In this document: in pieces, positions 14,769-52,951 of the stretch | Numbering within the stretch: the stretch's first letter is position 1 | How the letters are laid out: each line of letters starts with the position of its first letter | Source: a virus | Strand: one strand, 5' to 3' | Length of the DNA stretch: 64,000 nucleotides | Virus record (IMG/VR): IMGVR_UViG_3300006033_000025 | Notes under the pieces: model-generated | Seen by the model: the letters and a program-made list of their open reading frames with translations, nothing else | What the model was told of the DNA's origin: nothing | Databases searched by the model: none | Translations under genes and position numbers: made by a program

Positions 14769-15403
14769 GCCATCCCCACAGAATCCTGTTTCTTCGCATT
14801 GATGACCGAGTCGAGCTGACACGCGACCTCAGCCAGCCCAGTGGGCTTGATCTTCGGTTCGTTGCCACGCACATATTCCATGAGCGAAACATCGCTGTCG
14901 ACACGGCGGAAGCCGTGCTTCTCGTAGAACGTGTACAGCTCGTAGTTGCTCATCGCACCGTGCGAGTTCGACGCGAGGTAGATGCGCTGGAACGGGGAAC
15001 CGCTCAGGATCTGCTTGAGCATCCAAGATCCGAGGCCCTTGCGACGGAACTCGCGGGCGACCCACAGATCACTGATGTAGCAGAAGCTGCCCTTGCCGCC
15101 GGTGAGCGCCTGCCAAAGCAGGTAGCAGCGCGGCAGCCCATCACCCATGAGATTCGAATCGTACTCGGCGTTGATGGTGCCGAGCGCACCTTCACGAGCG
15201 ACCAGTACGGTCGCACGGACAAACGAAGCGTCCCATAGCTCGATGGTGACACCATCGCGGTTGATGATGACCTGACGCGTCGGTGCGACCATGTCCGGGT
15301 TTCGTCCCCAGTACATCTGGTTGCGTTCATCGCTGCTGAGGCCGAACTTGGTCGGCTTCGACGGCTCGCAGCACTTTGATTCACTCAGCATTGGCGTTTC
15401 CAT
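14753..15403 (-). CDS. GNAT-family N-acetyltransferase
   Basis: acetyl-CoA binding motif A region WVAREFRRKGLGSWMLKQIL; ATG at 15403 with AAGGAA SD; upstream part of track ORF is junk. Confidence 0.65.
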   Translation of the reverse strand: METPMLSESKCCEPSKPTKFGLSSDERNQMYWGRNPDMVAPTRQVIINRDGVTIELWDASFVRATVLVAREGALGTINAEYDSNLMGDGLPRCYLLWQALTGGKGSFCYISDLWVAREFRRKGLGSWMLKQILSGSPFQRIYLASNSHGAMSNYELYTFYEKHGFRRVDSDVSLMEYVRGNEPKIKPTGLAEVACQLDSVINAKKQDSVGMACRAP

Positions 15404-15695
15404 ATTGTTCCTTGATGGTTTTGATGTGTTCGAGCCAGAAGTCGTGATCGACTTCGACGAGGCCCTGAATGACCTCGTCGAGAGTCGGCATTCGCATGAA
15501 GAGCGTCTCGTTGCGATCGGTCCAGTACCGTTCTGAAACACGTGCGTTCAACTTCCCGCATCGGTCGCAGCCCTCCATGTGTAAGTACTGTGACGGGTCC
15601 ATCTCGTCGTCGAGACCTCCGACCTTCAGATCAAACCCGTGTTCCTTCGTCAGCACTCGGAACTTGTGGAAGCCCAACAGGCAGCGCAGTGACAT
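15381..15695 (-). CDS. hypothetical protein with CDRCGK motif
   Basis: start uncertain (15695 or 15602); overlaps next gene. Confidence 0.4.
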   Translation of the reverse strand: MSLRCLLGFHKFRVLTKEHGFDLKVGGLDDEMDPSQYLHMEGCDRCGKLNARVSERYWTDRNETLFMRMPTLDEVIQGLVEVDHDFWLEHIKTIKEQYGNANAE

Positions 15696-15936
15696 GCTCG
15701 TTTTCTTTCTTGAGTGCGAGATCGAGAAGATCTCCGGGTGAGGTTTCCGCACATTCGTCTTGGTCCATGGTCTTGAAGATCTCGTGACATGTGGGGCATT
15801 CGTAGTTGGCGCAGAAGCCTTCCTCCCCCATCCCCGTCACATACCACAGCTTGGTCTTCTCCGGGAACTTCCGCCAGCAGCCGAAGCAGCGGTGCGGTTT
15901 CTTCGTGAGGACCAGCTTCTCACGGTAGAAGCTCAT
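15631..15936 (-). CDS. zinc-ribbon protein
   Basis: CFGC...CPTC Cys4; ATGA overlap with upstream gene. Confidence 0.55.
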   Translation of the reverse strand: MSFYREKLVLTKKPHRCFGCWRKFPEKTKLWYVTGMGEEGFCANYECPTCHEIFKTMDQDECAETSPGDLLDLALKKENEHVTALPVGLPQVPSADEGTRV

Positions 15937-23921: not shown

Positions 23922-24491
23922 CTACTTCTTTCCCTTCTTCATCTGCTTCTTGAACTGTTCGACGGTGCGGCTCGCCCAGCTGCTTGAGTTCATCCACTTG
24001 GCGCGGCGGTGCGTGAACACGACAGCGCCACCGTCGAACTCGTCGACGCGCATCTTGGAGCACGTGCACGCCCAGGTCATGTACCAGGGCGCAGCTGACT
24101 GCATCTCGGGAACGACGGTAGCCAGGAGCTGGAGGCAGCGGACAGCAGAGTCGACGTCGATGCTCTCGTCAGCCTTCACCCAGATGTCTTTGGCGTCGAG
24201 CTGCCAGTCGAATCCGAGGTATTCCCATTCGAGCTTCCAGCTCTTCACGACCTTCATGACGCGCTGAGCGCGCTTCTTCGTGTCGAGGTTGTCGAACAGG
24301 AGCGGCTTGTCGCCGGGAGGTTCGAGGCTCTTAATGAACGCATCGACATCGTCGACGGACTTGTCGTCCGGGTCGCCAGTCCCGTAGAGTTCGTGAGCCT
24401 TCTCGATCATGATCATAGCAGCCAGGATCGCGTTCTGGTCGGCGCCGCCGATGTCGATGCTCGACGACGACAGCATGTAGTTGTTAGCCAT
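23922..24491 (-). CDS. hypothetical protein
   Basis: ATG at 24491 overlaps thyX stop (TAATG); MANNYMLSSSSIDIGGADQNAILAAMIMIEKAHELYG...; upstream half of track ORF 23922..25070 is junk. Confidence 0.6.
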   Translation of the reverse strand: MANNYMLSSSSIDIGGADQNAILAAMIMIEKAHELYGTGDPDDKSVDDVDAFIKSLEPPGDKPLLFDNLDTKKRAQRVMKVVKSWKLEWEYLGFDWQLDAKDIWVKADESIDVDSAVRCLQLLATVVPEMQSAAPWYMTWACTCSKMRVDEFDGGAVVFTHRRAKWMNSSSWASRTVEQFKKQMKKGKK

Positions 24492-25585
24492 TAGACTGCC
24501 GACGGCCAGACTTCGTGGATGATGTTGACGATCTTCTCGTCGCTCACCAGCTTGCTGCGGCGCAGCTTGCCAGCGAACTCGTCGAAGCGGCGCTTGGTCC
24601 ACCCGCTGCTCGTCACAGCGTTGAGTTCGAAGCCGTTGAGTATGCCGTTGAGGACGATCAGCTCCTTGCCGGAGAAGTTCACCCCGTCGATGAAGTTGTC
24701 CTTGTGGCTCTCCCAGCTGCGCGGGAACAGGGCGTCGACCACACGGGCCATGGCGTCGGCGAAGACGCGGATCTCGTACTGGGCATGCTTGTCGGTGCGC
24801 AGCTTCAGGTAGTGCAGCATGTTCTTCAGGTCGATCTTCCACACGCACTGCGTGTAGATGTTGACGCCGAGCACGGCACGGGCCTGCTCTCGGGCGATCG
24901 GCACCTTGGCGAGCAGCTGATCGAGCGGGCTCTGGCCGTTGAACGGCTGCGCGTTGCTGGAACCGCCATAGCGCGAATCGCCGAGTTCGCCGTCGAGCGA
25001 CCCTTCGAGGAACTGCTGGTAGAGGCTGTAGGACAGGTCGTTGTGCTTCTTCAGCATGTCGTGCAGGCACTGCGCCTGGAGCGGCGAGATGCTGTACTTG
25101 ACGGTTGCCTGCTTGTCAGCTGCCGTGTTCAGCGCCCAGTCCTTGGCATCCGGGATGTAGAAGTCAGAGGCCAGCTCACTGTAGCGCGCGGACTCTTCGT
25201 TCAGGCTCGCCGTGCGGTGACGCACGTGCTGCCGCATCACGAAGATCGGCAGACGGATGTGGAACTTCAGCTCGCCCATCTCGATTGGGCTGGTGTGTTG
25301 GTTGCGGATGAGGTGGTCGATCAGGCCAGCATCAGCGCTGACCTTGCGGGTGCCCTTCTGGTAGCTGATGCGAGCGGCGTCAGCGATGGCAAAGTCGCAG
25401 GACGGCACGCCGTTGTCGTTGGGGCCTCCGCCGTCGACCTTTGGCAGCGGCACGAGGCGCGGCATGCAGTCCAGGATCTTGACGAAGCCGTGGTCCAGGC
25501 ACTTCTGGTTCAGCAGCTCAGGCGCGATGGTAGCGAGGACGTCGACCATCTGGTCGCCGGTCACCGGGTCGGTGAGAGTGTTCAC
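24491..25585 (-). CDS. thyX: flavin-dependent thymidylate synthase ThyX (long form)
   Basis: ThyX signature RHRX7S present as RHRTASLNEES; 364 aa. Confidence 0.8.
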   Translation of the reverse strand: MNTLTDPVTGDQMVDVLATIAPELLNQKCLDHGFVKILDCMPRLVPLPKVDGGGPNDNGVPSCDFAIADAARISYQKGTRKVSADAGLIDHLIRNQHTSPIEMGELKFHIRLPIFVMRQHVRHRTASLNEESARYSELASDFYIPDAKDWALNTAADKQATVKYSISPLQAQCLHDMLKKHNDLSYSLYQQFLEGSLDGELGDSRYGGSSNAQPFNGQSPLDQLLAKVPIAREQARAVLGVNIYTQCVWKIDLKNMLHYLKLRTDKHAQYEIRVFADAMARVVDALFPRSWESHKDNFIDGVNFSGKELIVLNGILNGFELNAVTSSGWTKRRFDEFAGKLRRSKLVSDEKIVNIIHEVWPSAV

Positions 25586-26384: not shown

Positions 26385-26424
26385 CTTGGAAAAGGTGGCG
26401 CCGGCAGCTTTCACTGCCGGCGCC
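26385..26424 (-). terminator. intrinsic terminator after SPFH gene
   Basis: 11-bp perfect stem GGCGCCGGCAG/CTGCCGGCGCC (26397..26424), 6-nt loop, then CCUUUUCC on the minus strand. Confidence 0.6.
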
Positions 26425-31955: not shown

Positions 31956-33869
31956 CTATCCTTCTACGCCAAGGACGGCGTTATGGACGGTGGTCTGGAA
32001 CTTCCACATGTTCTCCAGCTGCTGACGGACGGCGGCGTCGAAGCCCTCGCCACGGATCAGCTTGCGGACCATGTGCAGTTGGAACTCGCCGAACATGAGG
32101 TCGTAGTGGTTGCAGGGCCGCTCTTGGCCTCCGCGATACGTACGAGCCATGAACTGCGTGTAGGTCGCCGGAATCCACGCATGCTCGACGAGCATGGAGT
32201 TCGCAGCGCGTGTGAGTTCGATGGATTCGGAGCCAGCGCGCTGCTGCATGAGCATCACGCGAGCACGCCCTTCCTGGAAATCGGCGATGAACGTCTTGCG
32301 ATCCTGTCGCGGTGTCCCGCCACGGATGATGCGGTGTTTGATGCCGAGCTTGGTGAACTGGTCAGAGATGAGCTGAACAGTCTCCTTGTGGTAGGCAGCG
32401 ACGACGAGCGGCTCATCCGGGTTATCCCGCAGCCAGTTGAGCACCCACGTGATCTTCGGGCCGATCGGTGGCGCGAGCGGGTCGTTGTTGGCGTACCGGA
32501 ACTCGTAGTGCGGCATGCCGTCAGACTTCAGAGTCTTGACGATGCAACGATCGTAGATGCCTTCCTTGCGGAGCGCGCTCAGCACGCGGGCCAGCGACGG
32601 CAGCTCAGGACCGCCTTCGCCTTCAACGCCAAGCGGAATGCCAGCGTCAGCACGGTACTGTTCTGCTTCGGCCTTCTCAGCTTCCGTCGGTTCACTGTCG
32701 GGCTCTTCGGTGTCCTCGATCTGCTGAGCGAGGGCGAGCGTGAAAGCACCGATATAGAGACGAGCAGCGTTGCCTGTGAGGTTCCCAGGCCACCAGACGC
32801 GGTTGTCACTGTTCTCTTTGAGCATGGTAGCCCGGAGATCGGTGATCCACTTGGGCTCTTCCCAGGTGTCGACGCCGATAGACGTCAGACCGGGCAGCTT
32901 GAGAACGTCGGCGACGTCGGGCGACGACTCGGACAGCGACTTCACGAACCGAGCCATGTAGCTACAGAACGGTCCCTGCTTATCTGCGGGCGGGATGACG
33001 AGGGACTTCTTCTTCTGCCTGCCGAACTTCGTCTCGACAATGCAGTTGAAGGCATCGCCGAATGCCCACTTATCGAAGAAGCGGGATGAACCGGGCAGAA
33101 CAATGTCCTGCACCTGGAGGATGCCTTCGGGGCCTGCATGGAGCAGCGTGCCAGTGAGGCCGACGCACCACTGGAAGGCTGCACGGATTTTGGCTATCGC
33201 TTGCGAGCGGCGGCGCTCTTCGCCCTTCGTGTTGTGCAGCTCGTCGATGATCATGGCGCCACCAAGATGGCGAGGCAGCCCAGTCCAGCGGTGTGCGCTG
33301 TCGATCGACAGAATCTTCACGTCCTTGTAGACCGTGCGCAGATCAGCGCAGTAGGATTCCCAAGTCCCCATGGCATTGAGCGGCGCGAAGATGTAGCAGC
33401 GGTCAGTGCTGCACTTGCCCAGTTTGGCGGCACCGATGGCCGCTGCGGTCGCCGTGAGCGTCTTGCCGACGCCACAGGAGAGCGCCAGGATCGAGCCAAG
33501 CCTGGATGCCGACCAGACTGCGGACTCGTGCTGGTACGGTCGGAGCGTGAAGCCCTTGTATTCGAGGAACGACGGCACGAGACCGAGCGGGTCGGTCATG
33601 GTCGTGTATTCGAGGTTGATGGATTCGGCCCAGTCGAGCACCCGCTGCACATCGACGCCGTGTTCCTTGCAGCCCTCTTCGAGCTTCTGCGTGAGCGTCT
33701 CCATCGGGTAGTCAGCTGCCGGCCCTGTCAGCGGCGTACCTGACAGCAGGTACGCCGCGTACAGGGTGAGAACAGCTACCGGCCTCGTGGCATCCTGACA
33801 GCTCTGAATCTTCGACGGCACCTCGGGCCAAGCCCGATGCGGGTCGATCATGATAGCCGGTAGTCCCAT
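31956..33869 (-). CDS. SF2 helicase, SNF2/DExH-like
   Basis: motif I SCGVGKT, motif II IIDELH, motif III LTGT, C-terminal helicase lobe; AAGGGG SD. Confidence 0.8.
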   Translation of the reverse strand: MGLPAIMIDPHRAWPEVPSKIQSCQDATRPVAVLTLYAAYLLSGTPLTGPAADYPMETLTQKLEEGCKEHGVDVQRVLDWAESINLEYTTMTDPLGLVPSFLEYKGFTLRPYQHESAVWSASRLGSILALSCGVGKTLTATAAAIGAAKLGKCSTDRCYIFAPLNAMGTWESYCADLRTVYKDVKILSIDSAHRWTGLPRHLGGAMIIDELHNTKGEERRRSQAIAKIRAAFQWCVGLTGTLLHAGPEGILQVQDIVLPGSSRFFDKWAFGDAFNCIVETKFGRQKKKSLVIPPADKQGPFCSYMARFVKSLSESSPDVADVLKLPGLTSIGVDTWEEPKWITDLRATMLKENSDNRVWWPGNLTGNAARLYIGAFTLALAQQIEDTEEPDSEPTEAEKAEAEQYRADAGIPLGVEGEGGPELPSLARVLSALRKEGIYDRCIVKTLKSDGMPHYEFRYANNDPLAPPIGPKITWVLNWLRDNPDEPLVVAAYHKETVQLISDQFTKLGIKHRIIRGGTPRQDRKTFIADFQEGRARVMLMQQRAGSESIELTRAANSMLVEHAWIPATYTQFMARTYRGGQERPCNHYDLMFGEFQLHMVRKLIRGEGFDAAVRQQLENMWKFQTTVHNAVLGVEG

Positions 33870-33872
33870 TGG

Positions 33873-35255
33873 TTACCCCTTGGGGATGAGGGCCTGGAGG
33901 CGACGGCGCGCGTCCATACCCGTGTTCTCGATCTTCTCGATCATCGCGATGGCGTCACGGACGACCACACGCGTGTTGCTTGCCTCGATGCTGATGCAGT
34001 CATTGACGGCCTCGACGAGCTGGTCGAGATCACCAACCTTGCAGTGGTAGTCCAGCGTCTTGAGCTTGGTGGAGCCCTTGACAGCACACTGGATCTTGAT
34101 CAGTGTCGAGCGGTAGGCGCGCAGTGCCTCACAGCTCGCTTTGATCGACGTCAGCAGCGTGCCAGCCGTCTTCACGGTCGGCCATCCGAGATCATTCAGC
34201 CCATCGCCAGCGTGCGTGCGGCAGCTGTCGGTGAACACGTCCATGTTGATGGTGAACTCGGCCTGCTTCCGTCCCTGTGCAGCGATGCGGTTGGCTTCGA
34301 TGAGGCAGTCCTCCATCGTCTTGGTCTCGTCGTTGAAGAACGCGATGCCGAGCTTTCCCCAGCCTTCGCGCTCGAACTCCAGCTCTTCGCGCAGGCGATC
34401 GCGCTCGGCAACGACCTCTTCTATCGTCCTGACTCGCGCGTCGAGGCGAGCGTCCTTGTTCTCAATCGTCTTGAAGCTGGCACGGATCGCGTCATGCAGC
34501 TGACCGAACAGCAGGCGCAGGTTGTCGCGCGGATGATTGGTCTCCGTGACGAGTGCCTTGCCGAGCAGCTGTGTGTTCGTCGAGGCCATGTCCTTGACGA
34601 ACTTCAGATCCGCGAACTTGCGGTCTTCGATGTTCTTGCGCAGCTTCTCGTCGAGCGCCGTGAGCGTATGGAGGATGAACTCGCGCACAGGCCGTGAGAT
34701 GTCGTACTGGATTGGCAGGTCGAACCGGGTCACGATGCTGCGAGCCGTGTCGATCATGACACCGGAGATGGTGCGGTGCTCCGTCTGGCACTGCCATGCC
34801 TGGATGCGCTTGAACGCCTCCAGAATCGTCTCCTTCTTGGTCTGCGTGAACGGAGAGTCGATGCCGAGCACCTTGAGGGTCTCGTACGCGGCCTTCTCCA
34901 TCTCGATGAACGACGGGTTGTAGTCCCGCAGCTCCGCGCGCAGGCCATCGCAGGTCTTCGCGAGTTCCTTCAGGTTGTCGTGAATCCGGTCGTTGGCGTC
35001 GGACTCGTCCTTGCATCGCTTCTGGAGATGTGCGATGAACTCGTCTTGTTTCACCAGCTTGGCACGCAGCTCGGTGTTGAGGCGCTCGACTGCCACCTTG
35101 GCATCATGCGATTGACCCGTCAGCTCGCGCTGCGTCTTGCTGGTCTGCTTCTCCTGCTCCAGCTCATGCGCCAGTCTCTCGTTGGTCATCTGAAGATCGC
35201 GCACCTGGATCTTCAGCTTCTCCATCGTCACTTCGATGTCGTTAGATGCGGTCAT
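33873..35255 (-). CDS. large coiled-coil protein (460 aa)
   Basis: long GC3-rich ORF; ATG immediately preceded by the AACGAAAACGAAAAC leader motif. Confidence 0.75.
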   Translation of the reverse strand: MTASNDIEVTMEKLKIQVRDLQMTNERLAHELEQEKQTSKTQRELTGQSHDAKVAVERLNTELRAKLVKQDEFIAHLQKRCKDESDANDRIHDNLKELAKTCDGLRAELRDYNPSFIEMEKAAYETLKVLGIDSPFTQTKKETILEAFKRIQAWQCQTEHRTISGVMIDTARSIVTRFDLPIQYDISRPVREFILHTLTALDEKLRKNIEDRKFADLKFVKDMASTNTQLLGKALVTETNHPRDNLRLLFGQLHDAIRASFKTIENKDARLDARVRTIEEVVAERDRLREELEFEREGWGKLGIAFFNDETKTMEDCLIEANRIAAQGRKQAEFTINMDVFTDSCRTHAGDGLNDLGWPTVKTAGTLLTSIKASCEALRAYRSTLIKIQCAVKGSTKLKTLDYHCKVGDLDQLVEAVNDCISIEASNTRVVVRDAIAMIEKIENTGMDARRRLQALIPKG

Positions 35256-35272
35256 GTTTTCGTTTTCGTTGG
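35255..35272 (-). promoter_or_regulatory. recurrent leader motif CCAACGAAAACGAAAAC directly upstream of ATG
   Basis: plus-strand TGTTTTCGTTTTCGTTGG; identical 17-mer recurs at 56645..56661. Confidence 0.5.
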
Positions 35273-35277
35273 AAGGT

Positions 35278-35301
35278 CCCTGCCGGCTTTCGCCGGCAGG
35301 G
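35278..35301 (-). terminator. hairpin CCCTGCCGGC-TTTC-GCCGGCAGGG between two genes
   Basis: perfect 10-bp stem, 4-nt loop, just downstream of stop of 35310..35816; no strong U-tract. Confidence 0.45.
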
Positions 35302-35309
35302 TGCGTTGT

Positions 35310-35816
35310 TCAGGCTGGCTTGGTCGACTCGTTGCGAACCGCCGGAGCGGTGTACTTCGTCATGCGGTAGCTGTCGACCCACATCACGCGCATGCTCTTG
35401 TCGGATGCGATCTGGGCCACACAGAGATCGAGAACCTGTCCCCACAGCGGGGTGCCGGGCTCGAAGTTGTCGCCGTCCGCTGAGGACAGCACGTGGCCCT
35501 TCATGCGTTCGACAACCTTCAGCACGATGAAGGGACCGTACGAGCGGCGATCCTTGAAGATCTCACCCTTCCAATCCACGACGTCGTACTGCTGGAACGG
35601 TTCGGGGTTGGTGAAGTAGGTCCGTGCCATCGCGTCGAGGGCCTCGGGCGTGTTCAGGGTGCGCGTCAGCGACGCCTCAGCAGCCATGGCTGCTTCGCGC
35701 TTAGCCATCTCTTCCTGGGCACGCTTCTTCATGGCTGCCTCAGCTCCGGCGATCATCTTGGCGAGGTCCGACTGGGCCTCGCGTTCGACGTTGTCGCTCT
35801 CGGGATCATCGCTCAT
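35310..35816 (-). CDS. hypothetical protein
   Basis: 168 aa; AAGGAG SD. Confidence 0.7.
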   Translation of the reverse strand: MSDDPESDNVEREAQSDLAKMIAGAEAAMKKRAQEEMAKREAAMAAEASLTRTLNTPEALDAMARTYFTNPEPFQQYDVVDWKGEIFKDRRSYGPFIVLKVVERMKGHVLSSADGDNFEPGTPLWGQVLDLCVAQIASDKSMRVMWVDSYRMTKYTAPAVRNESTKPA

Positions 35817-36713: not shown

Positions 36714-38996
36714 TCAGGTGAGGTTGAGGAACATGTCGGGCTCGTTGCGCAGGATCTTACCCCAGCGATCGTTGCCTTCGGACATCTTTCCGGTTTCTTT
36801 GTTCAGCTTGGGCACAGCGACGTCCATCTCGTCTTCGTACATGGACTCGGTGACCGTGATCTCTTCAGGCTTGATGAGGATAGCCCAGTTCATCGGGTGG
36901 TTGTTCCCAGGCCCGAAGACGTCGATGAGGTGCTGCCGTGCCTGGAGCACAGCCTCACGCTTCCGATCGGTGATGATCATGACTTCGTCGTGGATGTGCA
37001 GGATGTCCACGACGCCGCGCTTCTTGAGTTCGAGAAGCCCGTAGCAGAGCGCGTTGCGCGCTGCCGACTGGGTGACGTTCTCAATCGCGAGCTGCTTGGT
37101 GAACGGCTTCTCTTCGCCGGTCGCCTTGAGGATGGTGAGCCTTGGTTCCGAGTGGTTGTTCGTGAAGATCGAACGGACGAGCGGCTGACGCCAGCACACC
37201 GTCGGAGTCCACGGGCCACAACGAACGCGAAGGCTAACTCCTGTTGTTTCGTCGGGATCGAGTTCGATGCCGATCTTGTTTCGATCAGGAGCATAGTGCG
37301 ACTGGTACATCCGGTCGATTTCGTACTGTGCGTTGGCAGCACTGTCGCCGCACGCAGAGACGTTCTCAACCAAGCGGAGCAGCCAATCAGCCACGCGGGT
37401 GTACTCGGGGTACGCTTCGTTGAACAGACGGTGAATGTGATATGCAGCGAGAGCTGTAATCTCGGTGCAGTTGGTCTTCTCCATGATGTAGTTGAGCCGC
37501 TTGCTCTTCTCCCACCCAAGAGACAGACGCATCTCATTCAACTTCTCTTCAGTCACCTTGCTCTTCTTGTCCGCGAGAACGCCCAGTAGGACGTTTGCGT
37601 AGCCTGCGGCACCCATGCAGTAGCCGAGGCCGAGCACAGCAGACTTGGCGACCTGACGAACGGGATCCTTCTTGGTGATCGCGATCGACGTCATGGCCTT
37701 CCACGTCATGCAGTACGGATCGTTGTTGATGTCGCCGCCAAGGGCAGGGTCGAACATCTTGAACACATTCTTGGAGTCCGTCAGCCATCCTTCGACGCGG
37801 AACTCGACGTTCGCGAGGTCACCACGCACCAGACACTTGTCTGGCGGCATGCGGAACACGCGACGGATCGGTTCAGCAACCGACTTGTCGTGCTTCGGCA
37901 CGTTGTGCAGGTTCAGGCCCTTGCCAGATGATGGAGAGCTGAAGCGGAACGTGTGAGCACGGGCAAAGCCAAGCTCAACGTCGACTTCAGGAACGCCACG
38001 GAAGATCTTGGATCGACGACCGTGGCTGATCATCTTGTTGGCACGGCTGGTCTGCTTCAGCAGGTTCGTCACCTCCGGGTACTTGGCCTGGAGGATCGGG
38101 CTGAGCTTCTTCAGGCTCGTCGTCGGAAGCGTGACGTTCCACTTCTCGGTGATGAGCTTGCTCAGGCGCTGAACACGTACGGAACGGAGGGACCCGTCGC
38201 CCGTGTTGCGGTTGAACACTTCTGCGAGCTGCTCCATAGAGAGCAGTTCGGACGCGTTCTCCTGAGCATCGTTGGCATTCAAGTCCAGCTTCTCAATGAG
38301 CTTCACGAGCGCATCTGGATCTACGACGAAGTTGAACTGACGGACGTGGTGCGTCATCAGTGCGATCTCCTGCTCCCGTGCAGAGAGGCAGGCGATCTGG
38401 TAGTAGTAGATCTCTCGCATCGAATCGACGTCGCGGGTGTTGTACTGGGCCATTTCGGCACCAGTCAGCTGCTCCAGCGTCTTGCCAAAAGCCTCTTCGA
38501 CGTCGATCTTCAGCATGTGGACAGGAAGCTGAAGGAACGCGCCGAGCGCCTTCAGGCTGTAGCCACCAACGCACTCAGGCCACGCACCCATAGCGCCCTC
38601 GACGGTGCACCACACGTTCTTCGGCTGCGGGATGCCCAGCATGAAGCGGAGCACACGAATGTCGAAGGCCGCATTGTGACAGACGAAGACGTAGCGCGGG
38701 TCCTTAGCCAGCTCAGTGAGTAGCGCGATGAGGTCTTTGGGCGCCTCACCGTTCGGCGTCAGCCACACCTCAGTCGCGCTGTCTGCAATGGCAACAGCGA
38801 TTGACGTGAGATAGCTGTTCTTGATGTACTGCCTGAGCGTCATCGACGACAGCGAGATGCCGCGTCGCTCATTCATGTACGTTTCAACGTCGACGAAGAC
38901 TGGAATCAGCGTCGACAGTGGTCCCTCGGTCGCGTAGCGCCGACGGGCGCACGTGACCGAGGCCACGGTTTGCACCGTGGTCGGTTCAGTCAGCAT
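36714..38996 (-). CDS. DNA polymerase, family A, with 3'-5' exonuclease domain
   Basis: exo I VDVETY, exo II HNAAFD, exo III YNTRD; pol motif A DLANVEFRV, motif B RQVAKSAVLGLGY, motif C IHDEV. Confidence 0.9.
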   Translation of the reverse strand: MLTEPTTVQTVASVTCARRRYATEGPLSTLIPVFVDVETYMNERRGISLSSMTLRQYIKNSYLTSIAVAIADSATEVWLTPNGEAPKDLIALLTELAKDPRYVFVCHNAAFDIRVLRFMLGIPQPKNVWCTVEGAMGAWPECVGGYSLKALGAFLQLPVHMLKIDVEEAFGKTLEQLTGAEMAQYNTRDVDSMREIYYYQIACLSAREQEIALMTHHVRQFNFVVDPDALVKLIEKLDLNANDAQENASELLSMEQLAEVFNRNTGDGSLRSVRVQRLSKLITEKWNVTLPTTSLKKLSPILQAKYPEVTNLLKQTSRANKMISHGRRSKIFRGVPEVDVELGFARAHTFRFSSPSSGKGLNLHNVPKHDKSVAEPIRRVFRMPPDKCLVRGDLANVEFRVEGWLTDSKNVFKMFDPALGGDINNDPYCMTWKAMTSIAITKKDPVRQVAKSAVLGLGYCMGAAGYANVLLGVLADKKSKVTEEKLNEMRLSLGWEKSKRLNYIMEKTNCTEITALAAYHIHRLFNEAYPEYTRVADWLLRLVENVSACGDSAANAQYEIDRMYQSHYAPDRNKIGIELDPDETTGVSLRVRCGPWTPTVCWRQPLVRSIFTNNHSEPRLTILKATGEEKPFTKQLAIENVTQSAARNALCYGLLELKKRGVVDILHIHDEVMIITDRKREAVLQARQHLIDVFGPGNNHPMNWAILIKPEEITVTESMYEDEMDVAVPKLNKETGKMSEGNDRWGKILRNEPDMFLNLT

Positions 38997-45325: not shown

Positions 45326-45362
45326 TGGAAACGAAACAGCCGGCGTCTTGCGACGCCGGCTG
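45326..45362 (-). terminator. intrinsic terminator after DUF932-like gene
   Basis: 11-bp perfect stem CAGCCGGCGTC/GACGCCGGCTG (45337..45362), loop TTGC, followed on the minus strand by UUUCGUUUCC; also T-rich on the plus side. Confidence 0.65.
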
Positions 45363-45390
45363 TCTCTTGTGTTTACGAACAGCGTCGAGG

Positions 45391-47699: not shown

Positions 47700-48440
47700 T
47701 TATTCTCCGGTGTTTTCTGATTCGACAATGAAGACACGGATGCTGTGCGTTCCGTACTTCTGTGCCCAACCAGTGGTTCGGAATCGGAGGTCGATGTGAA
47801 CGACTCCTTTATTCCGGGTGTTGCGACTGATGGTCGAGCCTGTGTCATCGACAGTGAACACGCGGTTTGTACGCGTGCTAAGGTATCCGCTTTCAACAGG
47901 GACGATCATCTTGGTGCCGTAGCGCCAACGGGGCTTGCCACGCGTGTGCGGGACTGCGATTCCGTACGGCTCTTCGAGCACATTGGTTTCACCATCAGCG
48001 GTGATCCAACGCCACTTACCTTTCGTGGCGTGGTAGTTGCCGTCGATGGGATCATGCGGGCTGTAGCCTGTGGCGACAACATCGACCCAGCGGCCGATGT
48101 AGCCGTCATAGACCTCCTGGCCGGGCTTCAGAACAGGAGCCGGTGCAGCCGGCGGTGCCTCGACAACCGGCGTGTGCACCATCGCGTAGAGCGCTGCTGC
48201 ATCGACTGCCGGCAGCGGGGCCGGCTCCTGCTTCTTGACAGCTGCAACGATCACCGGCGCCGGCTCGGGCCGGGCGAAGCGATCGAGGAAGAAGAAGGTA
48301 GTGGCTGCCACGGCCAGGGCCGCGATCAGCCATGCAGTTGCACGCAGGTAGTCGAAAGAAAACCCCCGAGCCTGCACTCGGGGGTATTCAGTGCTGGTGG
48401 CGCCAGCTAAGAGCCCGACGAAGGAACTCGCTCGTATCAT
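47700..48440 (-). CDS. 3D-domain cell-wall hydrolase (MltA-like) with N-terminal membrane anchor
   Basis: TM segment WLIAALAVAATTFFFL; C-terminal ATGYSPHDPIDG...GIAVPH...YGTKMIVPV...TVDDTGSTI...GVVHIDLRF matches the 3D domain. Confidence 0.7.
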   Translation of the reverse strand: MIRASSFVGLLAGATSTEYPRVQARGFSFDYLRATAWLIAALAVAATTFFFLDRFARPEPAPVIVAAVKKQEPAPLPAVDAAALYAMVHTPVVEAPPAAPAPVLKPGQEVYDGYIGRWVDVVATGYSPHDPIDGNYHATKGKWRWITADGETNVLEEPYGIAVPHTRGKPRWRYGTKMIVPVESGYLSTRTNRVFTVDDTGSTISRNTRNKGVVHIDLRFRTTGWAQKYGTHSIRVFIVESENTGE

Positions 48441-48587: not shown

Positions 48588-49532
48588 TTACTTCAGGTGT
48601 TGCGACAGGCAGGCCATGGCCGCGATTTGGCCGAGCACTGGATCGGCGTCGCCGAGATCCTTGCGGATCTGCCGGGCCTTGGCGCAGGCAGCGTCGAAGG
48701 CCGCCATGCGCTCCTTCTGCTCCTGCTCGATCTGCTTCAGGCAGCCGTCGATGCCGAGGATCTTGGTGACCTTGGCGAAGAGCGCGTCGCCGCCCATGGT
48801 GCTGGAGCAGTAGCCGATGTCCTTGAACTGCTCTACGCGATCAGGGTGCACGCCACCGTAGACGAGCGCCTCATAGGCCGCGATGTGTGGCGAGAGGTTC
48901 ATGCCACAGCCGAACAGGTGGACGAAGTTATCGTCGCTCTCGTACTTGCCACCGTCGAGGAAGCGGCCGGTGCCGAGGCCAGCCTCTTCGGCTGCATCCT
49001 CATCGAAGCGCCGGTAGATCCAGACCGTGTTCCACATGCACTCGTTGGTCTCGGGGCCACGACGATAGCAGCGCTTCAGCTCGTCGTGGTAGTCGTCGGC
49101 CTCCCGCTGTGCCTTCTCCAGCTCAGCGAGCTTGGCCTTGGCTGCCTCCAGCTCGATGGCCTTCTCAGCTTCGGGCATGGTCGGGTGGTCTTCGATCTCG
49201 GTGATGATGTCTTCCTGCTCGCCGACGGCGTCGTCAGCCTCGTCGAGCTTCTCCTTGGCAGCTTCGATGGCATCTTCCATGCGATCAGCGCGGATCTCAG
49301 GACCGTCGTCGGGCTTGTAGTAGGCGCCAAGCTCGTAGTCCTCGCCGTAGGACATGTCGCTGATGTCGACTGCCGTGATGTCCATCTCGCACACCTTGAT
49401 AAGGGCGCGGAAGTTGAACTTGTTGTGCTCCTTCAGTACTTTGAAGAAGTCGTCAACGATCTCGCGCATCGCCGGCGTATGGGCGAGATTACGGATGTGA
49501 TCGTGGTCGTTTTCAATCTGGCTCTGGGGCAT
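48588..49532 (-). CDS. hypothetical acidic protein
   Basis: ATG at 49532 has AGGAAGAAG SD (MPQSQIENDHDH...); track start 49544 lacks SD. Confidence 0.7.
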   Translation of the reverse strand: MPQSQIENDHDHIRNLAHTPAMREIVDDFFKVLKEHNKFNFRALIKVCEMDITAVDISDMSYGEDYELGAYYKPDDGPEIRADRMEDAIEAAKEKLDEADDAVGEQEDIITEIEDHPTMPEAEKAIELEAAKAKLAELEKAQREADDYHDELKRCYRRGPETNECMWNTVWIYRRFDEDAAEEAGLGTGRFLDGGKYESDDNFVHLFGCGMNLSPHIAAYEALVYGGVHPDRVEQFKDIGYCSSTMGGDALFAKVTKILGIDGCLKQIEQEQKERMAAFDAACAKARQIRKDLGDADPVLGQIAAMACLSQHLK

Positions 49533-50337
49533 CTTCTTCCTCATCTGCTTTGAGCAGGCCGAGTTCTTTCAGGAGGGGACGTACTTCCTCTTCGCTCGGG
49601 TAAAGCTCTTCTATCGTACTGTTGTTGCCATCTTCGATGAGTGCAGTGTACAGTTGACTCGCCCAGTCTTCGGGCGGATTGTCGATGAGTAAGTTGCGGC
49701 AGATGTAAGGTAGGTGTTTGAGGCTCAGCTCTTCAGCGAGTTCTGAGCAGTCTGCGTCGTCTGCGATCCCGTAGTCACGGAGACCGTCGAACCAGCCTTT
49801 GATGAAGCGGAAGATGCGCGTCGGCTTGCGTGGCGTCTCAGCGAGGGCCTCGCGACGTTCGCGAACCTGTGTCACAAGCGAATGCAGCTCGTTCCAGACG
49901 GTGCTCTGGGATTCGAGGACGATGGTCTCCATCGCCCGGTCGTCTGAGCTGCTGGTGCTTTCGAGCGTCTCGATGAGGCGGTCGAGCACCTCGATCTGCT
50001 TCACGATCTCAGGATCGACATCCTCGACGGCACGGAATGACAGGTGGTCGACCCAGCCGCACGCCCAGTGGCTGCATCCAGTGATCCTCCAGTCGTCCTT
50101 GAGCGTCGGGTCGCTTTCCAGCTTCTTGATGAGCACACGGGCGTTCGACTGCTGGATGCATTCGGAATCCCGTGTGCGGATCACCGGGCCGAGTGCCCAG
50201 GTGTCGAACATCTTCTCTTCGCCACGCGACTTGAAGTAGGCGAAGTTACTCGGTTCCTTGAGCGCTTCCTTGATGTCCTTTTCCGTGATGTCGACGTTTT
50301 TGTCGTCGAGCAGCTCGGGTTCGGTTGTTTCAGGCAT
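49513..50337 (-). CDS. hypothetical acidic protein (lower-GC gene)
   Basis: 274 aa; region visibly AT-richer than flanks. Confidence 0.65.
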   Translation of the reverse strand: MPETTEPELLDDKNVDITEKDIKEALKEPSNFAYFKSRGEEKMFDTWALGPVIRTRDSECIQQSNARVLIKKLESDPTLKDDWRITGCSHWACGWVDHLSFRAVEDVDPEIVKQIEVLDRLIETLESTSSSDDRAMETIVLESQSTVWNELHSLVTQVRERREALAETPRKPTRIFRFIKGWFDGLRDYGIADDADCSELAEELSLKHLPYICRNLLIDNPPEDWASQLYTALIEDGNNSTIEELYPSEEEVRPLLKELGLLKADEEEDAPEPD

Positions 50338-50557
50338 TCTTGTCTTTCTGCGATGCGCGATGTGCGAGGATCACACGATGCCCTTCAGCTGAGACCATGC
50401 AGCGGATCTTGTCGTCCACTGAGAGGCGTTCGCGCAGCTTGTTGGCGTAGTCGTATGCCTCCTTAGGTGAGTCGAAGTGGAACACCTCACGACCGTTCTT
50501 CAGGTAACTGAAGAGACAGTCGATGCGGGAGTAGGCGCCGGCAACGGCAGATCCCAT
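50330..50557 (-). CDS. hypothetical small protein
   Basis: 75 aa. Confidence 0.45.
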   Translation of the reverse strand: MGSAVAGAYSRIDCLFSYLKNGREVFHFDSPKEAYDYANKLRERLSVDDKIRCMVSAEGHRVILAHRASQKDKNA

Positions 50558-51093
50558 GGTTTGTCCTTGATGCAGTAGCGGGCAGCTCCGAAGCAGCTGC
50601 CAGCCCGTTTCTTCTCGTACATGCGCTTGAACAGGTCAGCCCCATAGTCGCGCACGACGGTTGAGTTGCACGTGTTGTGTCCGTCGCTCTTAGCCCATGC
50701 GAGATGCACGGGTTCAGGAACGACCTCGAAGTGTTTGTCCAACCACGTGCGAAGGTTGGTGAACGACCCGAGTTGCTTGATGAGGTCAATCTCAGCGGTG
50801 GTGTGTGGCAAGCCGTCACCGCCGAGCGAACCGCTGGCAGAGAGCTTGATACCTCCGACGCGAGCATGGCCCATCATCCAGTGACCGAGTTGGTGCAGCG
50901 GGACATACCGTACAGTGGCGTAAATCTGGGTGTAGAACGGTTCAGTGCTGGCCATGTCGACATAATCGGCCGGCTTCTCGTTGAAGAGCCAGCTATCCTT
51001 GTAGATCGAGAGCCAGTACATGAAGAAGCCGCGAGCGACCTGTTCGCTGTCGCGGTTGTAGCCCGACCAGAATCTGGTCTTCGAGATGAACAT
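50500..51093 (-). CDS. hypothetical protein with HQLGHWMMGH metal-binding-like motif
   Basis: 197 aa; leader CACGAAAAGCAAGGAAAC upstream of ATG. Confidence 0.6.
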   Translation of the reverse strand: MFISKTRFWSGYNRDSEQVARGFFMYWLSIYKDSWLFNEKPADYVDMASTEPFYTQIYATVRYVPLHQLGHWMMGHARVGGIKLSASGSLGGDGLPHTTAEIDLIKQLGSFTNLRTWLDKHFEVVPEPVHLAWAKSDGHNTCNSTVVRDYGADLFKRMYEKKRAGSCFGAARYCIKDKPWDLPLPAPTPASTVSSVT

Positions 51094-51161
51094 GAAGCGT
51101 TTCCTTGCTTTTCGTGAGTGTTAGGGGACCATTCAGGGGACAACCCAACCCTGGAGATCCC

Positions 51162-51932
51162 ATGCGGTACGTCTTCCTGCTGTTCCTGGCGTGTGCCGCG
51201 TTCGCGGCCGAGGCCAATCCCTTCACCGTGCCGGCAGCGCCGGCTCCTGTGGTCGCAGCGCCTGCGGCGCCGGCTCCGGTGGCAGCGGCTCCGGCCGTTG
51301 TCTCTAGTGAACCGGCTGTCCACCCCACACAACCGGCCTCGCCTGTAGCTGGCACGACACAAGAGGCGCCCAAGACGTGGTGGACCGAGATCATCGTCAT
51401 GCTGGCGGGCCTCGCGGCTGTCTGGCTGCGCAAGAAGATCAACGACTACACCAGTGCGCAGATCACCAAGGCCGAGGCCGAGGCCGAGGTTGCCGGCATC
51501 GACGCCAAGCAGCGGCTTGTTGCGCGTGCGAAGACATATGTCTGGCGGTGCGTCGAGAACTACAACCAGAAGTACCTGCCTGAGCTGTGTGAGGCCATCG
51601 CTCGTGGTCAGGTGAAGGACATCACGACCGTGAAGGAGCGCCTGAAGGGGCTCGGAACCATGCTGCTGAACGACGTGGTGGTGTACTTCAAGGGCCAGGA
51701 CATCGACCTCATCAAAGAGGTCGGCGAGGACCAGATCATGAGCTGGATCCGCAGCGCTGTCGACGAGATGAGCCCGTTCCAGAAGTACCCGACTGCCAAG
51801 GCCCTGGTCGAGGGCGGCGCTGAGATGGCCGTGAAGTACGGCCTGAACGTTGGTGCGAAGAAGTTCACGGAGTACCTGGAGAAGCAGGCCGAGGCCGAGA
51901 TCCAGTCGAAGCTCAGCGCGAAGGCGGGGTAA
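51162..51932 (+). CDS. secreted/membrane protein (signal peptide, Ala/Pro-rich linker, TM helix); first gene of putative lysis cassette
   Basis: ATG 51162 with GGAG SD; MRYVFLLFLACAAFAAEA signal-like; APAPVVAAPAAPAP linker; WWTEIIVMLAGLAAVWL TM. Confidence 0.65.
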   Translation: MRYVFLLFLACAAFAAEANPFTVPAAPAPVVAAPAAPAPVAAAPAVVSSEPAVHPTQPASPVAGTTQEAPKTWWTEIIVMLAGLAAVWLRKKINDYTSAQITKAEAEAEVAGIDAKQRLVARAKTYVWRCVENYNQKYLPELCEAIARGQVKDITTVKERLKGLGTMLLNDVVVYFKGQDIDLIKEVGEDQIMSWIRSAVDEMSPFQKYPTAKALVEGGAEMAVKYGLNVGAKKFTEYLEKQAEAEIQSKLSAKAG

Positions 51933-51935
51933 GCC

Positions 51936-52172
51936 ATGACGTTCCTGCTGACCCTCTTCGGACCCATCGTGAAGTCGCTCCTGGAGCTGCTCGTCGGCAA
52001 GACCGTCGATGGCGTCAAGGAGCGCAATGCCGTGAAGGCAGAGACGAAGGCGCTCGAAGCGAAGATGCGCTCGATCGCTGAGGACGCTGAAGCTCAGCGT
52101 CGCATTCACGAGGCCATGCGCCTCGGGCACGACGTGTCGTCGCCCGCTGCCTGGAACGCGGTGACCAAGTGA
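51936..52172 (+). CDS. small membrane protein (holin/antiholin-like candidate)
   Basis: 78 aa with hydrophobic N-terminus MTFLLTLFGPIVKSLLELLVG. Confidence 0.55.
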   Translation: MTFLLTLFGPIVKSLLELLVGKTVDGVKERNAVKAETKALEAKMRSIAEDAEAQRRIHEAMRLGHDVSSPAAWNAVTK

Positions 52173-52543
52173 AGATCCCCGGCATCAACCTGAACCTCGC
52201 CAAGATGCCGGCGGCTGCCTGGATCATCATCTCGGTCGGGCTCCTGTTCGTGCTGACGGCGATCAGCCTGAAGATCCTGATCAGCGACAACATCGCCATC
52301 GGCTCCGATGGCATGTCGCTCCAGGATCTCTCGACTGCGGACGGCGAGACGCTCACGCGTCCTGACGTCATTGAAGGCGTCGAGACCGAACTGGCCAAGG
52401 CCAAGGATCCAGAGGTGATCGAGCAGCTGACCGAGATCCGGTCGAAGCAGCACCAGCAGATCCAGCAACAGCAACAGCAAGGCGTCCAGCAGCAACAGCA
52501 GCAAGCTGCCCCGCACTGGGCTCCCACGAAAGGACACCGATGA
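52169..52543 (+). CDS. i-spanin-like protein (N-terminal TM, periplasmic coiled-coil, Gln-rich)
   Basis: GTG start in GTGA overlap; TM AAWIIISVGLLFVLTAISL; followed by lipoprotein gene. Confidence 0.55.
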   Translation: MKIPGINLNLAKMPAAAWIIISVGLLFVLTAISLKILISDNIAIGSDGMSLQDLSTADGETLTRPDVIEGVETELAKAKDPEVIEQLTEIRSKQHQQIQQQQQQGVQQQQQQAAPHWAPTKGHR

Positions 52544-52896
52544 AATACCTCGTGCTCCTGCTCGCCATCCTGCTCAGCGGATGCTGCGAGAACCGCATGG
52601 TCTACGAGCGCCTGCCGATGGTTCCGATGCCTGAGATTCCGGTCATGCTGCCGGATGACAAGACAGCGGCTACCTGGGAGGCAAACTACGTGAAGGCCGC
52701 GACGTTCGGGCTGAAGCTGTACCTTGGTGTACGCGAGCACGCCAAGATCTGCATCGAGCGCAACGTGGCACGGGGAACGATGACCCGCAAGGAAGCCGAA
52801 GTAGCTTGGGCCGAGTACCGACTCGAAGGCACACTGGCCCCGGATGATGAGCTGAAGAAACGGTATCCAGAGCAGCCGCCCGACGTAAAGGAATAG
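52540..52896 (+). CDS. o-spanin-like outer-membrane lipoprotein
   Basis: lipobox LLSGC at residues 12-16 after signal peptide; AAAGGA SD; ATGA overlap with preceding gene. Confidence 0.6.
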   Translation: MKYLVLLLAILLSGCCENRMVYERLPMVPMPEIPVMLPDDKTAATWEANYVKAATFGLKLYLGVREHAKICIERNVARGTMTRKEAEVAWAEYRLEGTLAPDDELKKRYPEQPPDVKE

Positions 52897-52910: not shown

Positions 52911-52951
52911 CGGAGCCGGCAGCGATCGCTGCCGGCTCCGTTGTTTTTCAG
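52911..52951 (+). terminator. intrinsic terminator at convergent junction
   Basis: perfect 30-nt palindrome CGGAGCCGGCAGCGA/TCGCTGCCGGCTCCG followed by TTGTTTTTCAG. Confidence 0.75.

Follow-up and report, generated by a model that had tools for sequence, protein, structure and literature searches.

The 64,000-nucleotide stretch of viral DNA analysed here (IMG/VR record IMGVR_UViG_3300006033_000025), referred to as the window, is part of the genome of an uncultured phage of approximately 200 kb, and contains, directly upstream of several of its genes, a short A-rich element whose core is the 8-mer GAAAACGA. At the first of the sites described below, termed site a, the minus strand from 35301 to 35253 reads CCCUGCCGGC-GAAA-GCCGGCAGGG-ACCUUC-CAACGAAAACGAAAAC-AUG, namely, a GC-rich hairpin, an A-rich 16-mer and the start codon of a coiled-coil protein of 460 amino acids (aa). 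The window belongs to ENA contig k141_1839023 (ERZ27247451; 200,766 bp), record coordinates being 190224 minus the window coordinate, and with its flanks included about 92 kb of the 200-kb genome were seen and some 25 proteins profiled. The window has a GC content of about 60%, and its genes lie nearly all on the minus strand, except for a four-gene block on the plus strand (51105-52896). They include a phage-type replication module (Table 1), to which genes for a DHH protein and a DUF932 protein also belong.

A conserved 8-mer upstream of start codons

A preliminary description of this stretch had reported an exact 17-mer shared by two leaders, and this was confirmed: the minus strand of the window contains CAACGAAAACGAAAAC at 35256-35271 and again at 56646-56661, with no further exact copy on either strand, the identity extending to 17 nucleotides (nt) when the next A is added, with the first copy abutting ATG 35255 and the second lying 8 nt from ATG 56637. 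Allowing up to three mismatches adds 58964-58979 and 937-952, giving four matches against 0.47 expected. As exact direct repeats of at least 17 nt form seven pairs in the window, however, the recurrence of a 17-mer does not by itself go beyond chance, and any significance of the exact 17-mer itself was rejected on this ground. The informative unit is the 8-mer GAAAACGA, of which the coding strand has seven copies and the opposite strand none; six of the seven are followed, after 0-20 nt, by an ATG with which an open reading frame (ORF) begins. This unit is frequently lengthened to GAAAACGAAAAC or GAAAACGAGA.

Four close variants had also been proposed before other genes. Two of them, at 58967-58980 and in the leader of a gene for a 141-aa basic protein, do contain the core, as GAAAACGA(GA), whereas those before 50500-51093 and before a 940-aa ORF, the gene named primase/helicase at that time, lack it and turned out to be an ordinary Shine-Dalgarno (SD) sequence plus an A-rich spacer (AAGGAAAC and GAAGGAAAAAC, respectively). 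Conversely, two window sites are additional to that description, one at the ligase gene (61470-61477) and one at 15698-15705, before ORF 15381-15695. The sole sense-strand exception in the window is the copy at 49507-49514, which overlaps the TGA of gene 49513-50337; that it might be the leader of a mis-called start was ruled out, as the N-terminus there is clearly coding.

Table 1. Positions of the motif, of the associated hairpins and of the replication genes. Coordinates are those of the window; (-) and (+) denote the strand.
Feature	Position	Description
Site a	35256-35271 (-)	CAAC-GAAAAC-GAAAAC; GAAAACGAAAAC directly at ATG 35255 of the 460-aa coiled-coil ORF 33873-35255; core at 35260-35267; leader without SD core; predicted unpaired
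Site b	56646-56661 (-)	Same 16-mer, then ACGGAAGC, then ATG 56637 of the repeat protein (273-aa reading); minus strand 56661-56635 reads CACACCCACA-CAACGAAAACGAAAAC-ACGGAAGC-AUG; core at 56650-56657, also inside the tail of the upstream 147-aa ORF 56559-57002
Site c	Right flank of contig	ccgtGAAAACGAAAACGAGACAAC-ATG before a 562-aa SMC/AAA-type (SbcC-like) ATPase
Site d	Right flank, opposite strand and arm	caccGAAAACGAAAAACGAGAAAGAGACC-ATG before a 220-aa gene, just after a small hairpin
Site e	58968-58975 (-)	GAAAACGA(GA), 20 nt upstream of ATG 58947 of a 30-aa basic peptide ORF; followed by hairpin GAGAUC-GAAAG-GAUCUC, within which the SD is held
Site f	58849-58856 (-)	TGAAAACGAGAAGGAAC; overlaps TGA of the peptide ORF; ATG 58835 (141-aa K/A-rich basic protein) follows after 13 nt; SD (AAGGAA) in leader
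Site g	61470-61477 (-)	AAGAAA-GAAAACG-ATG of the ATP-dependent DNA ligase; 8-mer ends in the A of the ATG; leader without SD core
Site h	15698-15705 (-)	AAGAAA-GAAAACGA-GC-ATG (GAAAACGAGC-ATG) before the 104-aa ORF 15381-15695; within the 3' end of the upstream Zn-ribbon-like ORF 15631-15936
Non-leader copy of GAAAACGA	49507-49514 (-)	Encodes ..I-E-N-D.., N-terminus of a 318-aa gene
GC-rich hairpin	35278-35301 (-)	CCCUGCCGGC-GAAA-GCCGGCAGGG; directly after the stop of 35310-35816, 6 nt upstream of site a
GCCGGC inverted repeats	26400-26421, 35282-35297, 45339-45360, 52915-52936	Intergenic stem-loops right after stops, with GNRA-like or short loops
GCCGGC inverted repeats	48208-48225, 51230-51244, 62871-62894	
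Thy1-type thymidylate synthase	24491-25585	
Helicase	31956-33869	
Family-A DNA polymerase (PolA)	36714-38996	
ATP-dependent DNA ligase	60223-61470	

Statistical specificity and replication in related phages

Leaders in this genome are in general A-rich and T-poor (A, 33% versus 23% overall; T, 12% versus 17% overall), and 8-mers of matched composition fall upstream of starts in 20% of cases, as compared with 4% of the sequence, so that a composition-preserving test was needed. For this purpose, 192 leaders were pooled and each was shuffled 1000 times with its own composition preserved. GAAAACG, found in 13 leaders, is the most frequent 7-mer among them, ahead of the SD heptamer GAAAGGA with 10. 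After shuffling, GAAAACG was present in a mean of 0.94 leaders and a maximum of five, and no 7-mer of any kind exceeded eight leaders. In the interval from -30 to -1, GAAAAC is the top enriched hexamer (9 of 17 occurrences), with GAAAA and AAAAC also among the top k-mers.

Further sequence came from the flanks of the same contig and from three related phages, here called relA, relB and relC, which were located through homologues of PolA and ligase, the latter 44-55% identical to the phage enzyme. These are relA (PolA 71%, ligase 55% identical), relB (ligase 48%) and relC (ligase 44%). The results were as follows. First, the right flank (9 kb) has two more leader sites, c and d, and since the latter is on the opposite arm, the motif tracks gene orientation; the left flank (9 kb) has none. 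Second, the motif is present in two leaders of relA (GAGAAA-GAAAACG-ATG and TGAAAACGAAAGACCCGGAAGCATC-ATG), which also has the variant GAAACGAGAACGAG-ATG, and in three of relB, including GAAAACGAAAACGAGAAACACCC-ATG at the orthologous 220-aa gene, so that these two genomes alone have five motif leaders against 0.40 expected. Third, four leaders of relC each have GAAAACG directly followed by ATG. The preliminary description had staked the element on its enrichment upstream of starts in a genome-wide scan, and over the four phages (about 164 kb in total) this enrichment is present, with 17 of 26 GAAAACG loci in leader windows that make up some 2% of the both-strand sequence. It is the strand bias, the shuffle tests and the replication in independent sequence that establish significance.

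Alignment of the 17 sites gives an invariant 8-mer, whose eighth A is present in 17 of 17 although it was not selected for; at abutting sites this A is the A of the AUG. The following 2-4 nt have a weak R-A-A/C preference, and no position is conserved in the 40 nt upstream. The leading G matters, since GAAAACGATG marks a real start in six of six cases and the same 9-mer without it (HAAAACGATG) in none of seven. The 3' end of the motif lies 0, 0, 3, 5, 7, 10, 13-18 and 21 nt from the ATG, with the four relC sites again at 0. In the leader of the 220-aa gene, GAAAACGAAAA(A)CGAGAAA is kept between the phage and relB, where the proteins are 55% identical and the flanking non-coding sequence cannot be aligned.

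Start codons and overlapping reading frames

The leader status of sites b and h depends on which start codons are used. In public gene calls the repeat protein begins at ATG 56553 (245 aa), and the motif of site b would then be read as H-N-E-N-E-N within the 147-aa ORF. Two tests favour ATG 56637 instead. First, codon usage between 56637 and 56554 scores +0.33 bits per codon in the frame of the repeat protein and -0.19, as expected of an out-of-frame reading, for the tail of the 147-aa ORF. Second, the 28-residue N-terminal extension matches the internal repeat of the same protein (LQRLIIAQVQESIGDAV versus LEKIVEQQVERQIGDEV; shuffle p about 0.002). Because of these two tests the second 17-mer copy is most likely a genuine leader overlapping the tail of the 147-aa ORF, and the alternative that it merely consists of codons of that ORF was ruled out. 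Its earlier placement upstream of the repeat-protein gene therefore stands with ATG 56637, whereas with the public start the motif would be coding.

At site h, codon usage clearly marks ORF 15381-15695 as coding (+0.88 bits per codon), and over the overlap of about 63-65 nt (15631-15695) its frame scores +0.28 versus -1.04 for the upstream ORF. There are thus two long same-strand overlaps, of 79 nt and about 65 nt, where the downstream start bears the motif. The codon-based gene model of this analysis omitted ORF 15381-15695, and the public caller preferred the later start, 56553, for the repeat protein.

Relation to the Shine-Dalgarno sequence and predicted accessibility

Motif leaders tend to be devoid of an SD: 8 of 13 lack an SD core between -18 and -4, as compared with 47 of 179 others (odds ratio 4.5, p = 0.011). 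The motif resembles the SD in its place just upstream of starts and in its frequency as a leader 7-mer (13 versus 10), and a 16S rRNA tail of the form CCUCCUUUCU-3' would offer, in its UUUC, a possible pairing partner for the GAAA of the motif. Nevertheless, GAAAACGA contains no GGA, GAGG or AGG, and hence no complementarity to the CCUCC core, its distances to the ATG are bimodal rather than SD-like, and the abutting class is too near the AUG for SD-type pairing. For the same geometric reason, namely, that the abutting class lies 0-5 nt from the ATG, we dropped an extended anti-SD, that is, a 16S tail complementary to GAAAACGAGAAAGGAGG, 16S sequences not having been scanned. In leaders of the window and of contigs L007, L009 and L010, GAAAGGA or AGAAAG(A/G) is the typical form of the clade's SD, which implies, as judged from sequence, pairing with a tail of the ...CCUCCUUUCU-3' type. 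Stop and start are often combined in these leaders, as TGAAAGGA or TGAAAGACAAC-ATG, with CTGAAA found upstream 9 out of 18 times.

Predicted RNA folding sets the motif leaders apart as well. The motif is predicted to be unpaired in all six minimum free energy folds, and the mean predicted unpaired probability from -20 to +3, which reaches 0.67 in motif leaders, compares with 0.51 at other starts and 0.42 in gene-internal windows (p = 0.002).

A proposed cis-acting element of translation initiation

Position, strand bias, statistical specificity, conservation, predicted accessibility and the association with SD-less leaders are observed properties of the motif, and on this basis we put it at somewhat better than even that GAAAACGA is a cis-acting RNA element of translation initiation, which acts alongside the SD or replaces it in this clade. 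The translation-enhancer option of the preliminary description is the one that the sequence data support, given that the motif is strand-specific, lies 0-21 nt from starts, is predicted unpaired, favours SD-less leaders and is kept in leaders of relatives. Mechanistically, a U-free, A-rich element that does not pair with itself would keep the 20-25 nt before the start single-stranded in a transcript of 60% GC, and this open leader may serve as a landing or standby surface for the 30S subunit, with ribosomal protein bS1 and the mRNA channel, both of which are known to prefer A-rich sequence close to starts, as likely contacts. Two classes may be envisaged. In class I the motif would itself be the spacer (GAAAACG-AUG, or within 5 nt of the AUG), usually without GGA or GGAG, and would replace both SD and spacer. 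Class II motifs are found at a distance of 7-21 nt on the 5' side of the AUG, in many cases with a normal SD (GAAAGGA, AAGGAA or CGGAAG) following, and may work as an upstream enhancer or standby site.

There is precedent for such an element. Initiation is promoted, independently of SD pairing, by A-rich sequence in the 15 nt or so ahead of a start, and reporter expression is abolished when the A's are replaced by C's (PMC7043885). This so-called Kozak-like A-rich signal (Baez et al. 2019; Saito, Green & Buskirk 2020, PMC7043885) shares with the motif its A enrichment some 15-20 nt upstream of the AUG, where the leaders studied here have 33% A versus 23%, its independence from the SD, its low structure, which in our case is a prediction, and its greatest strength where the SD is weak or absent. 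It differs in being a position-wise bias, whereas the motif is an invariant and often tandem word in four phage genomes, with two preferred distances to the ATG and confined to about 8% of genes, most genes still using an SD. Likewise, bS1 enhancers and standby sites (Boni 1991 and Komarova 2005, as cited in PMC7043885; Sterk et al. 2018, PMC5934652) are single-stranded and located at or 5' of the ribosome-binding site, and bS1 binds A-rich single-stranded sites of 10-12 nt (PMC1702504). The motif, of 8-12 nt, is about one S1 footprint, and site e, beside a hairpin-held SD, has a standby-like layout. Those enhancers, however, are A/U-rich, and the motif, for which S1 contact and a standby role are putative, contains no U. 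What is new is an invariant, word-like variant of the A-rich SD-independent initiation element.

Several points weigh against the initiation element. Raised initiation efficiency, and which ribosomal contacts would bring it about, we infer from the properties listed above. The invariance of the 8-mer is more specific than would be expected of an enhancer that avoids structure or binds bS1. The distance to the ATG is bimodal rather than fixed (+7 and about +20-28 from the first G). The motif turns over gene by gene, being present at the ligase gene in the phage only and at a 410/434-aa gene in relA only, and being absent from the leader of the AAA ATPase gene in relB; the 220-aa gene is the exception to this turnover. 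It is found in only about 8% of leaders, and the accessibility, SD and codon-bias tests are small, with 6-13 motif leaders each.

Gene class

The motif had also been suggested to mark middle or late, or highly expressed, genes. Six of the eight phage sites and all relA and relB sites are no more than about 10 kb away from the divergent junction of the two genome arms, on the side of the replication genes, and in roughly 17 kb of the leftward arm that were examined, which include Laminin_G-type structural genes, the motif is found only at the junction-proximal 220-aa gene. A middle- or late-gene marker is argued against by this distribution, that is, by sites that are junction-proximal and absent from the structural-type leaders examined. 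The second suggestion fared slightly better, as codon bias is a little higher in the six window motif genes (p = 0.02-0.05; third-position GC, 0.84 versus 0.79 in others, p = 0.02, n = 6), which hints weakly at high expression. The gene set is compatible with early-side or high-demand genes.

The junction itself, which lies outside the window, is a 575-bp non-coding region (L003 6832-7407; record about 124.05-124.6 kb) with local AT-rich stretches and many CCCACCTC or GGTGGG(T/G)A repeats in both orientations, and is a candidate early-promoter or origin region.

A sequence-specific reader as an alternative

A dedicated reader of the motif is a live alternative because the full 8-mer is invariant, the leading G is needed and the sites cluster near the junction. 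In one form, which we think unlikely while giving it more weight than the other alternatives discussed below, GAAAACGA would be the site of a sequence-specific RNA-binding factor, of phage or host, that regulates junction-proximal, probably early, genes by translation or mRNA-stability control, for instance as the operator of a RegA-like repressor or as a RegB-S1-like cleavage/activation site. In addition to the invariance over four phages, which includes the eighth A whether or not it is in the AUG, and to the clustering, which extends to relA and relB, the size of the motif fits this idea: 8-12 nt corresponds to one S1 footprint, and the T4 RegB/S1 site, GGAGRAYARAA, is similarly an 11-nt, single-stranded, A-rich sequence, located in initiation regions of early genes, with its GGA 100% conserved (PMC1702504). 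The targets of T4 RegB/S1 and RegA, like the motif, are short single-stranded A-rich consensus sequences in initiation regions of a subset of early-side genes, and by analogy the motif could define a post-transcriptional regulon.

The resemblance to RegB sites does not extend to their defining features, because these have a 5' GGA followed by seven A-rich nt without C, and the motif has no GGA triplet, its core beginning GAAAAC with an invariant C at position 6. No candidate binding protein is at hand, and no RegA or RegB homologue was seen among the approximately 25 proteins profiled, although no search was aimed at these families. Moreover, turnover between orthologues is easier to reconcile with a generic expression signal than with a fixed regulon, and the variable AUG distance and tandem copies would fit a passive enhancer equally well. 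More broadly, we consider it doubtful, to a similar degree, that GAAAACGA is read sequence-specifically, be it by a phage RNA-binding protein or nuclease that switches the early set on or off, as a functional analogue of T4 RegA or RegB-S1 whose recognition sequence is unrelated to theirs, or through pairing with a host or phage RNA.

Other known RNA elements can be set aside. Rfam 15 gave no match at or above gathering score anywhere in the window. RNase E prefers sites that contain U, and an RNase E-type processing site was ruled out since the motif has none. A lambda nut-like boxA/boxB was ruled out because the hairpin is 5' of the linear element, which is the wrong order, and because the sites are too many, and an Hfq (ARN)n motif because only alternate triplets fit.

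Hairpins and the promoter alternative

That the motif is a signal in DNA, either a promoter or a conserved initial transcribed sequence of a phage-specific polymerase or sigma factor, with the hairpins terminating the preceding units, appears improbable. It draws on the layout of hairpin, motif and ATG at site a, site d and the relA AAA ATPase gene (weaker at sites e and i), on the clustering of sites at the divergent junction, where early promoters would be expected, and on the fact that consensus scans can miss short promoters of unfamiliar phage polymerases.

A stable hairpin had been reported upstream of the motif in two cases. The hairpin at 35278-35301 is strong, with a 10-bp GC stem and a GAAA loop (about -24 kcal/mol, z = -3.3), and is terminator- or insulator-like, yet its tail, ACCUUCC, contains no U-run, and the terminator scan omits it for this reason. 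At about 59006-59028, by contrast, the stem comes from a palindrome of 8 bp that is richer in AT and forms part of a larger predicted fold. The former belongs to a family of GCCGGC...GCCGGC inverted repeats (seven matches versus 0.28 expected), some of which, unlike it, are terminator-like with T-rich tails, as is the case of the sister hairpins 45336-45363 and 52911-52940. The hairpins upstream of the motif, namely, that at 35278-35301 and those before site d and before the relA ATPase gene, may terminate or insulate the preceding cistron.

The evidence from the sites themselves goes against the promoter option of the preliminary description. Promoter prediction places no sigma-70-like pair of -35 and -10 hexamers, 16-18 bp apart, at any of the sites, total counts being at or below shuffle expectation, and the 40 nt upstream of the 17 sites hold no information. 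At the six sites where motif and ATG touch, there is no space for a transcription start, since one placed 5-8 nt downstream would fall within the ORF. Sites e and f are separated by about 110 nt, and several others are in intercistronic gaps of 19-27 nt, or inside the end of the upstream ORF, within co-directional arrays. The complete lack of T and the tandem hexamers suggest a constraint at the RNA level. Promoters of T7-like single-subunit polymerases have about 17-23 conserved bp that span the start site, as compared with 8 invariant nt and unconserved flanks here.

Finally, that there is no dedicated element at all, only leader composition, chance repeats and codon words (GAA AAC GAx, or Glu-Asn-Glu/Asp), is hardly credible and largely refuted, since the seven repeat pairs, the upstream preference of composition-matched 8-mers, the copies of sites b and h inside upstream ORFs and the 9 of 28 occurrences outside leaders are outweighed by shuffles that never reach 13 (at most five for this word and eight for any), by replication in three genomes and in held-out flanks, by the strand bias of 7:0 and by overlapped ORF tails that look out of frame by codon usage.

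Relatives and neighbouring features

GenBank phages gave no megablast match to the region, and the best PolA tblastn match, to Liberibacter phages, is only about 25% identical. Searches of IMG/VR with PolA and with the 460-aa protein gave no matches; the latter protein has no homologue besides itself and its gene is absent from the syntenic relA position, which makes footprinting of its leader impossible. Alignments of the 220-aa protein (A1) and the AAA ATPase (A2) gave no more relatives in species genomes or IMG/VR, and JGI metagenomes returned relB again and nothing further. Other relatives of about 200 kb have a PolA that is about 50% identical. An 11-kb contig, L008 (ENA ERZ27280282 k141_78108), has a PolA 85% identical to that of the phage, and was not taken as a relative given its different gene context, where the PolA gene neighbours those for a UmuC/IMS polymerase, an S24 peptidase and an HTH protein; this context suggests that the PolA gene may have moved between quite different elements. 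The sole hint of a host is one distant relative binned as a Phycisphaerae metagenome-assembled genome. Unusual RNA-related proteins are encoded among the relatives, by relC a Ro60/TROVE plus vWA protein (L017 479-1960) and by relA a Thg1-like tRNA-His guanylyltransferase (L007 4921-5742).

In the window, the 30-aa Lys/Ala/Thr-rich peptide ORF directly precedes the gene of the 141-aa basic protein (58410-58947 for the pair), a Lys/Ala-rich protein with an H1-like composition and no Pfam match. These two genes have a 16-mer, AAGGCCAAGGCCACCA, in common (58757-58772 and 58872-58887), and a separate GAAAACGAGA leader each. Upstream of both, at about 59006-59028 on the minus strand, a perfect palindrome, GTCAACAA-n7-TTGTTGAC, lies over a perfect TTGACA and looks like an operator over a -35 element, for which the scan gave no acceptable -10. 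The four-gene plus-strand block sits within the minus-strand arm and ends in a strong terminator hairpin (52911-52940), whose stem has 13 bp and whose tail is T-rich.

Significance

If the motif is functional, this phage clade would use two parallel start codes, the SD and a fixed A-rich 8-mer; if it has a specific reader, the clade would possess a private ribosome-recruitment or translational-control code parallel to the SD system. The genes that bear it by the divergent junction, which encode the ligase, the SbcC-like ATPase and the basic DNA-binding-type, coiled-coil and repeat proteins, are a candidate co-regulated set. The motif accounts for unusually long gene overlaps (65-79 nt), and it has practical value for start-codon annotation in this clade, where automated callers misplace or miss motif-bearing starts, as with 56637 versus 56553 and with gene 15381-15695. 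It would also offer a compact SD-independent leader for GC-rich systems. More generally, an invariant word kept in this way provides a case for asking whether A-rich enhancers act via structure avoidance alone or via specific recognition.

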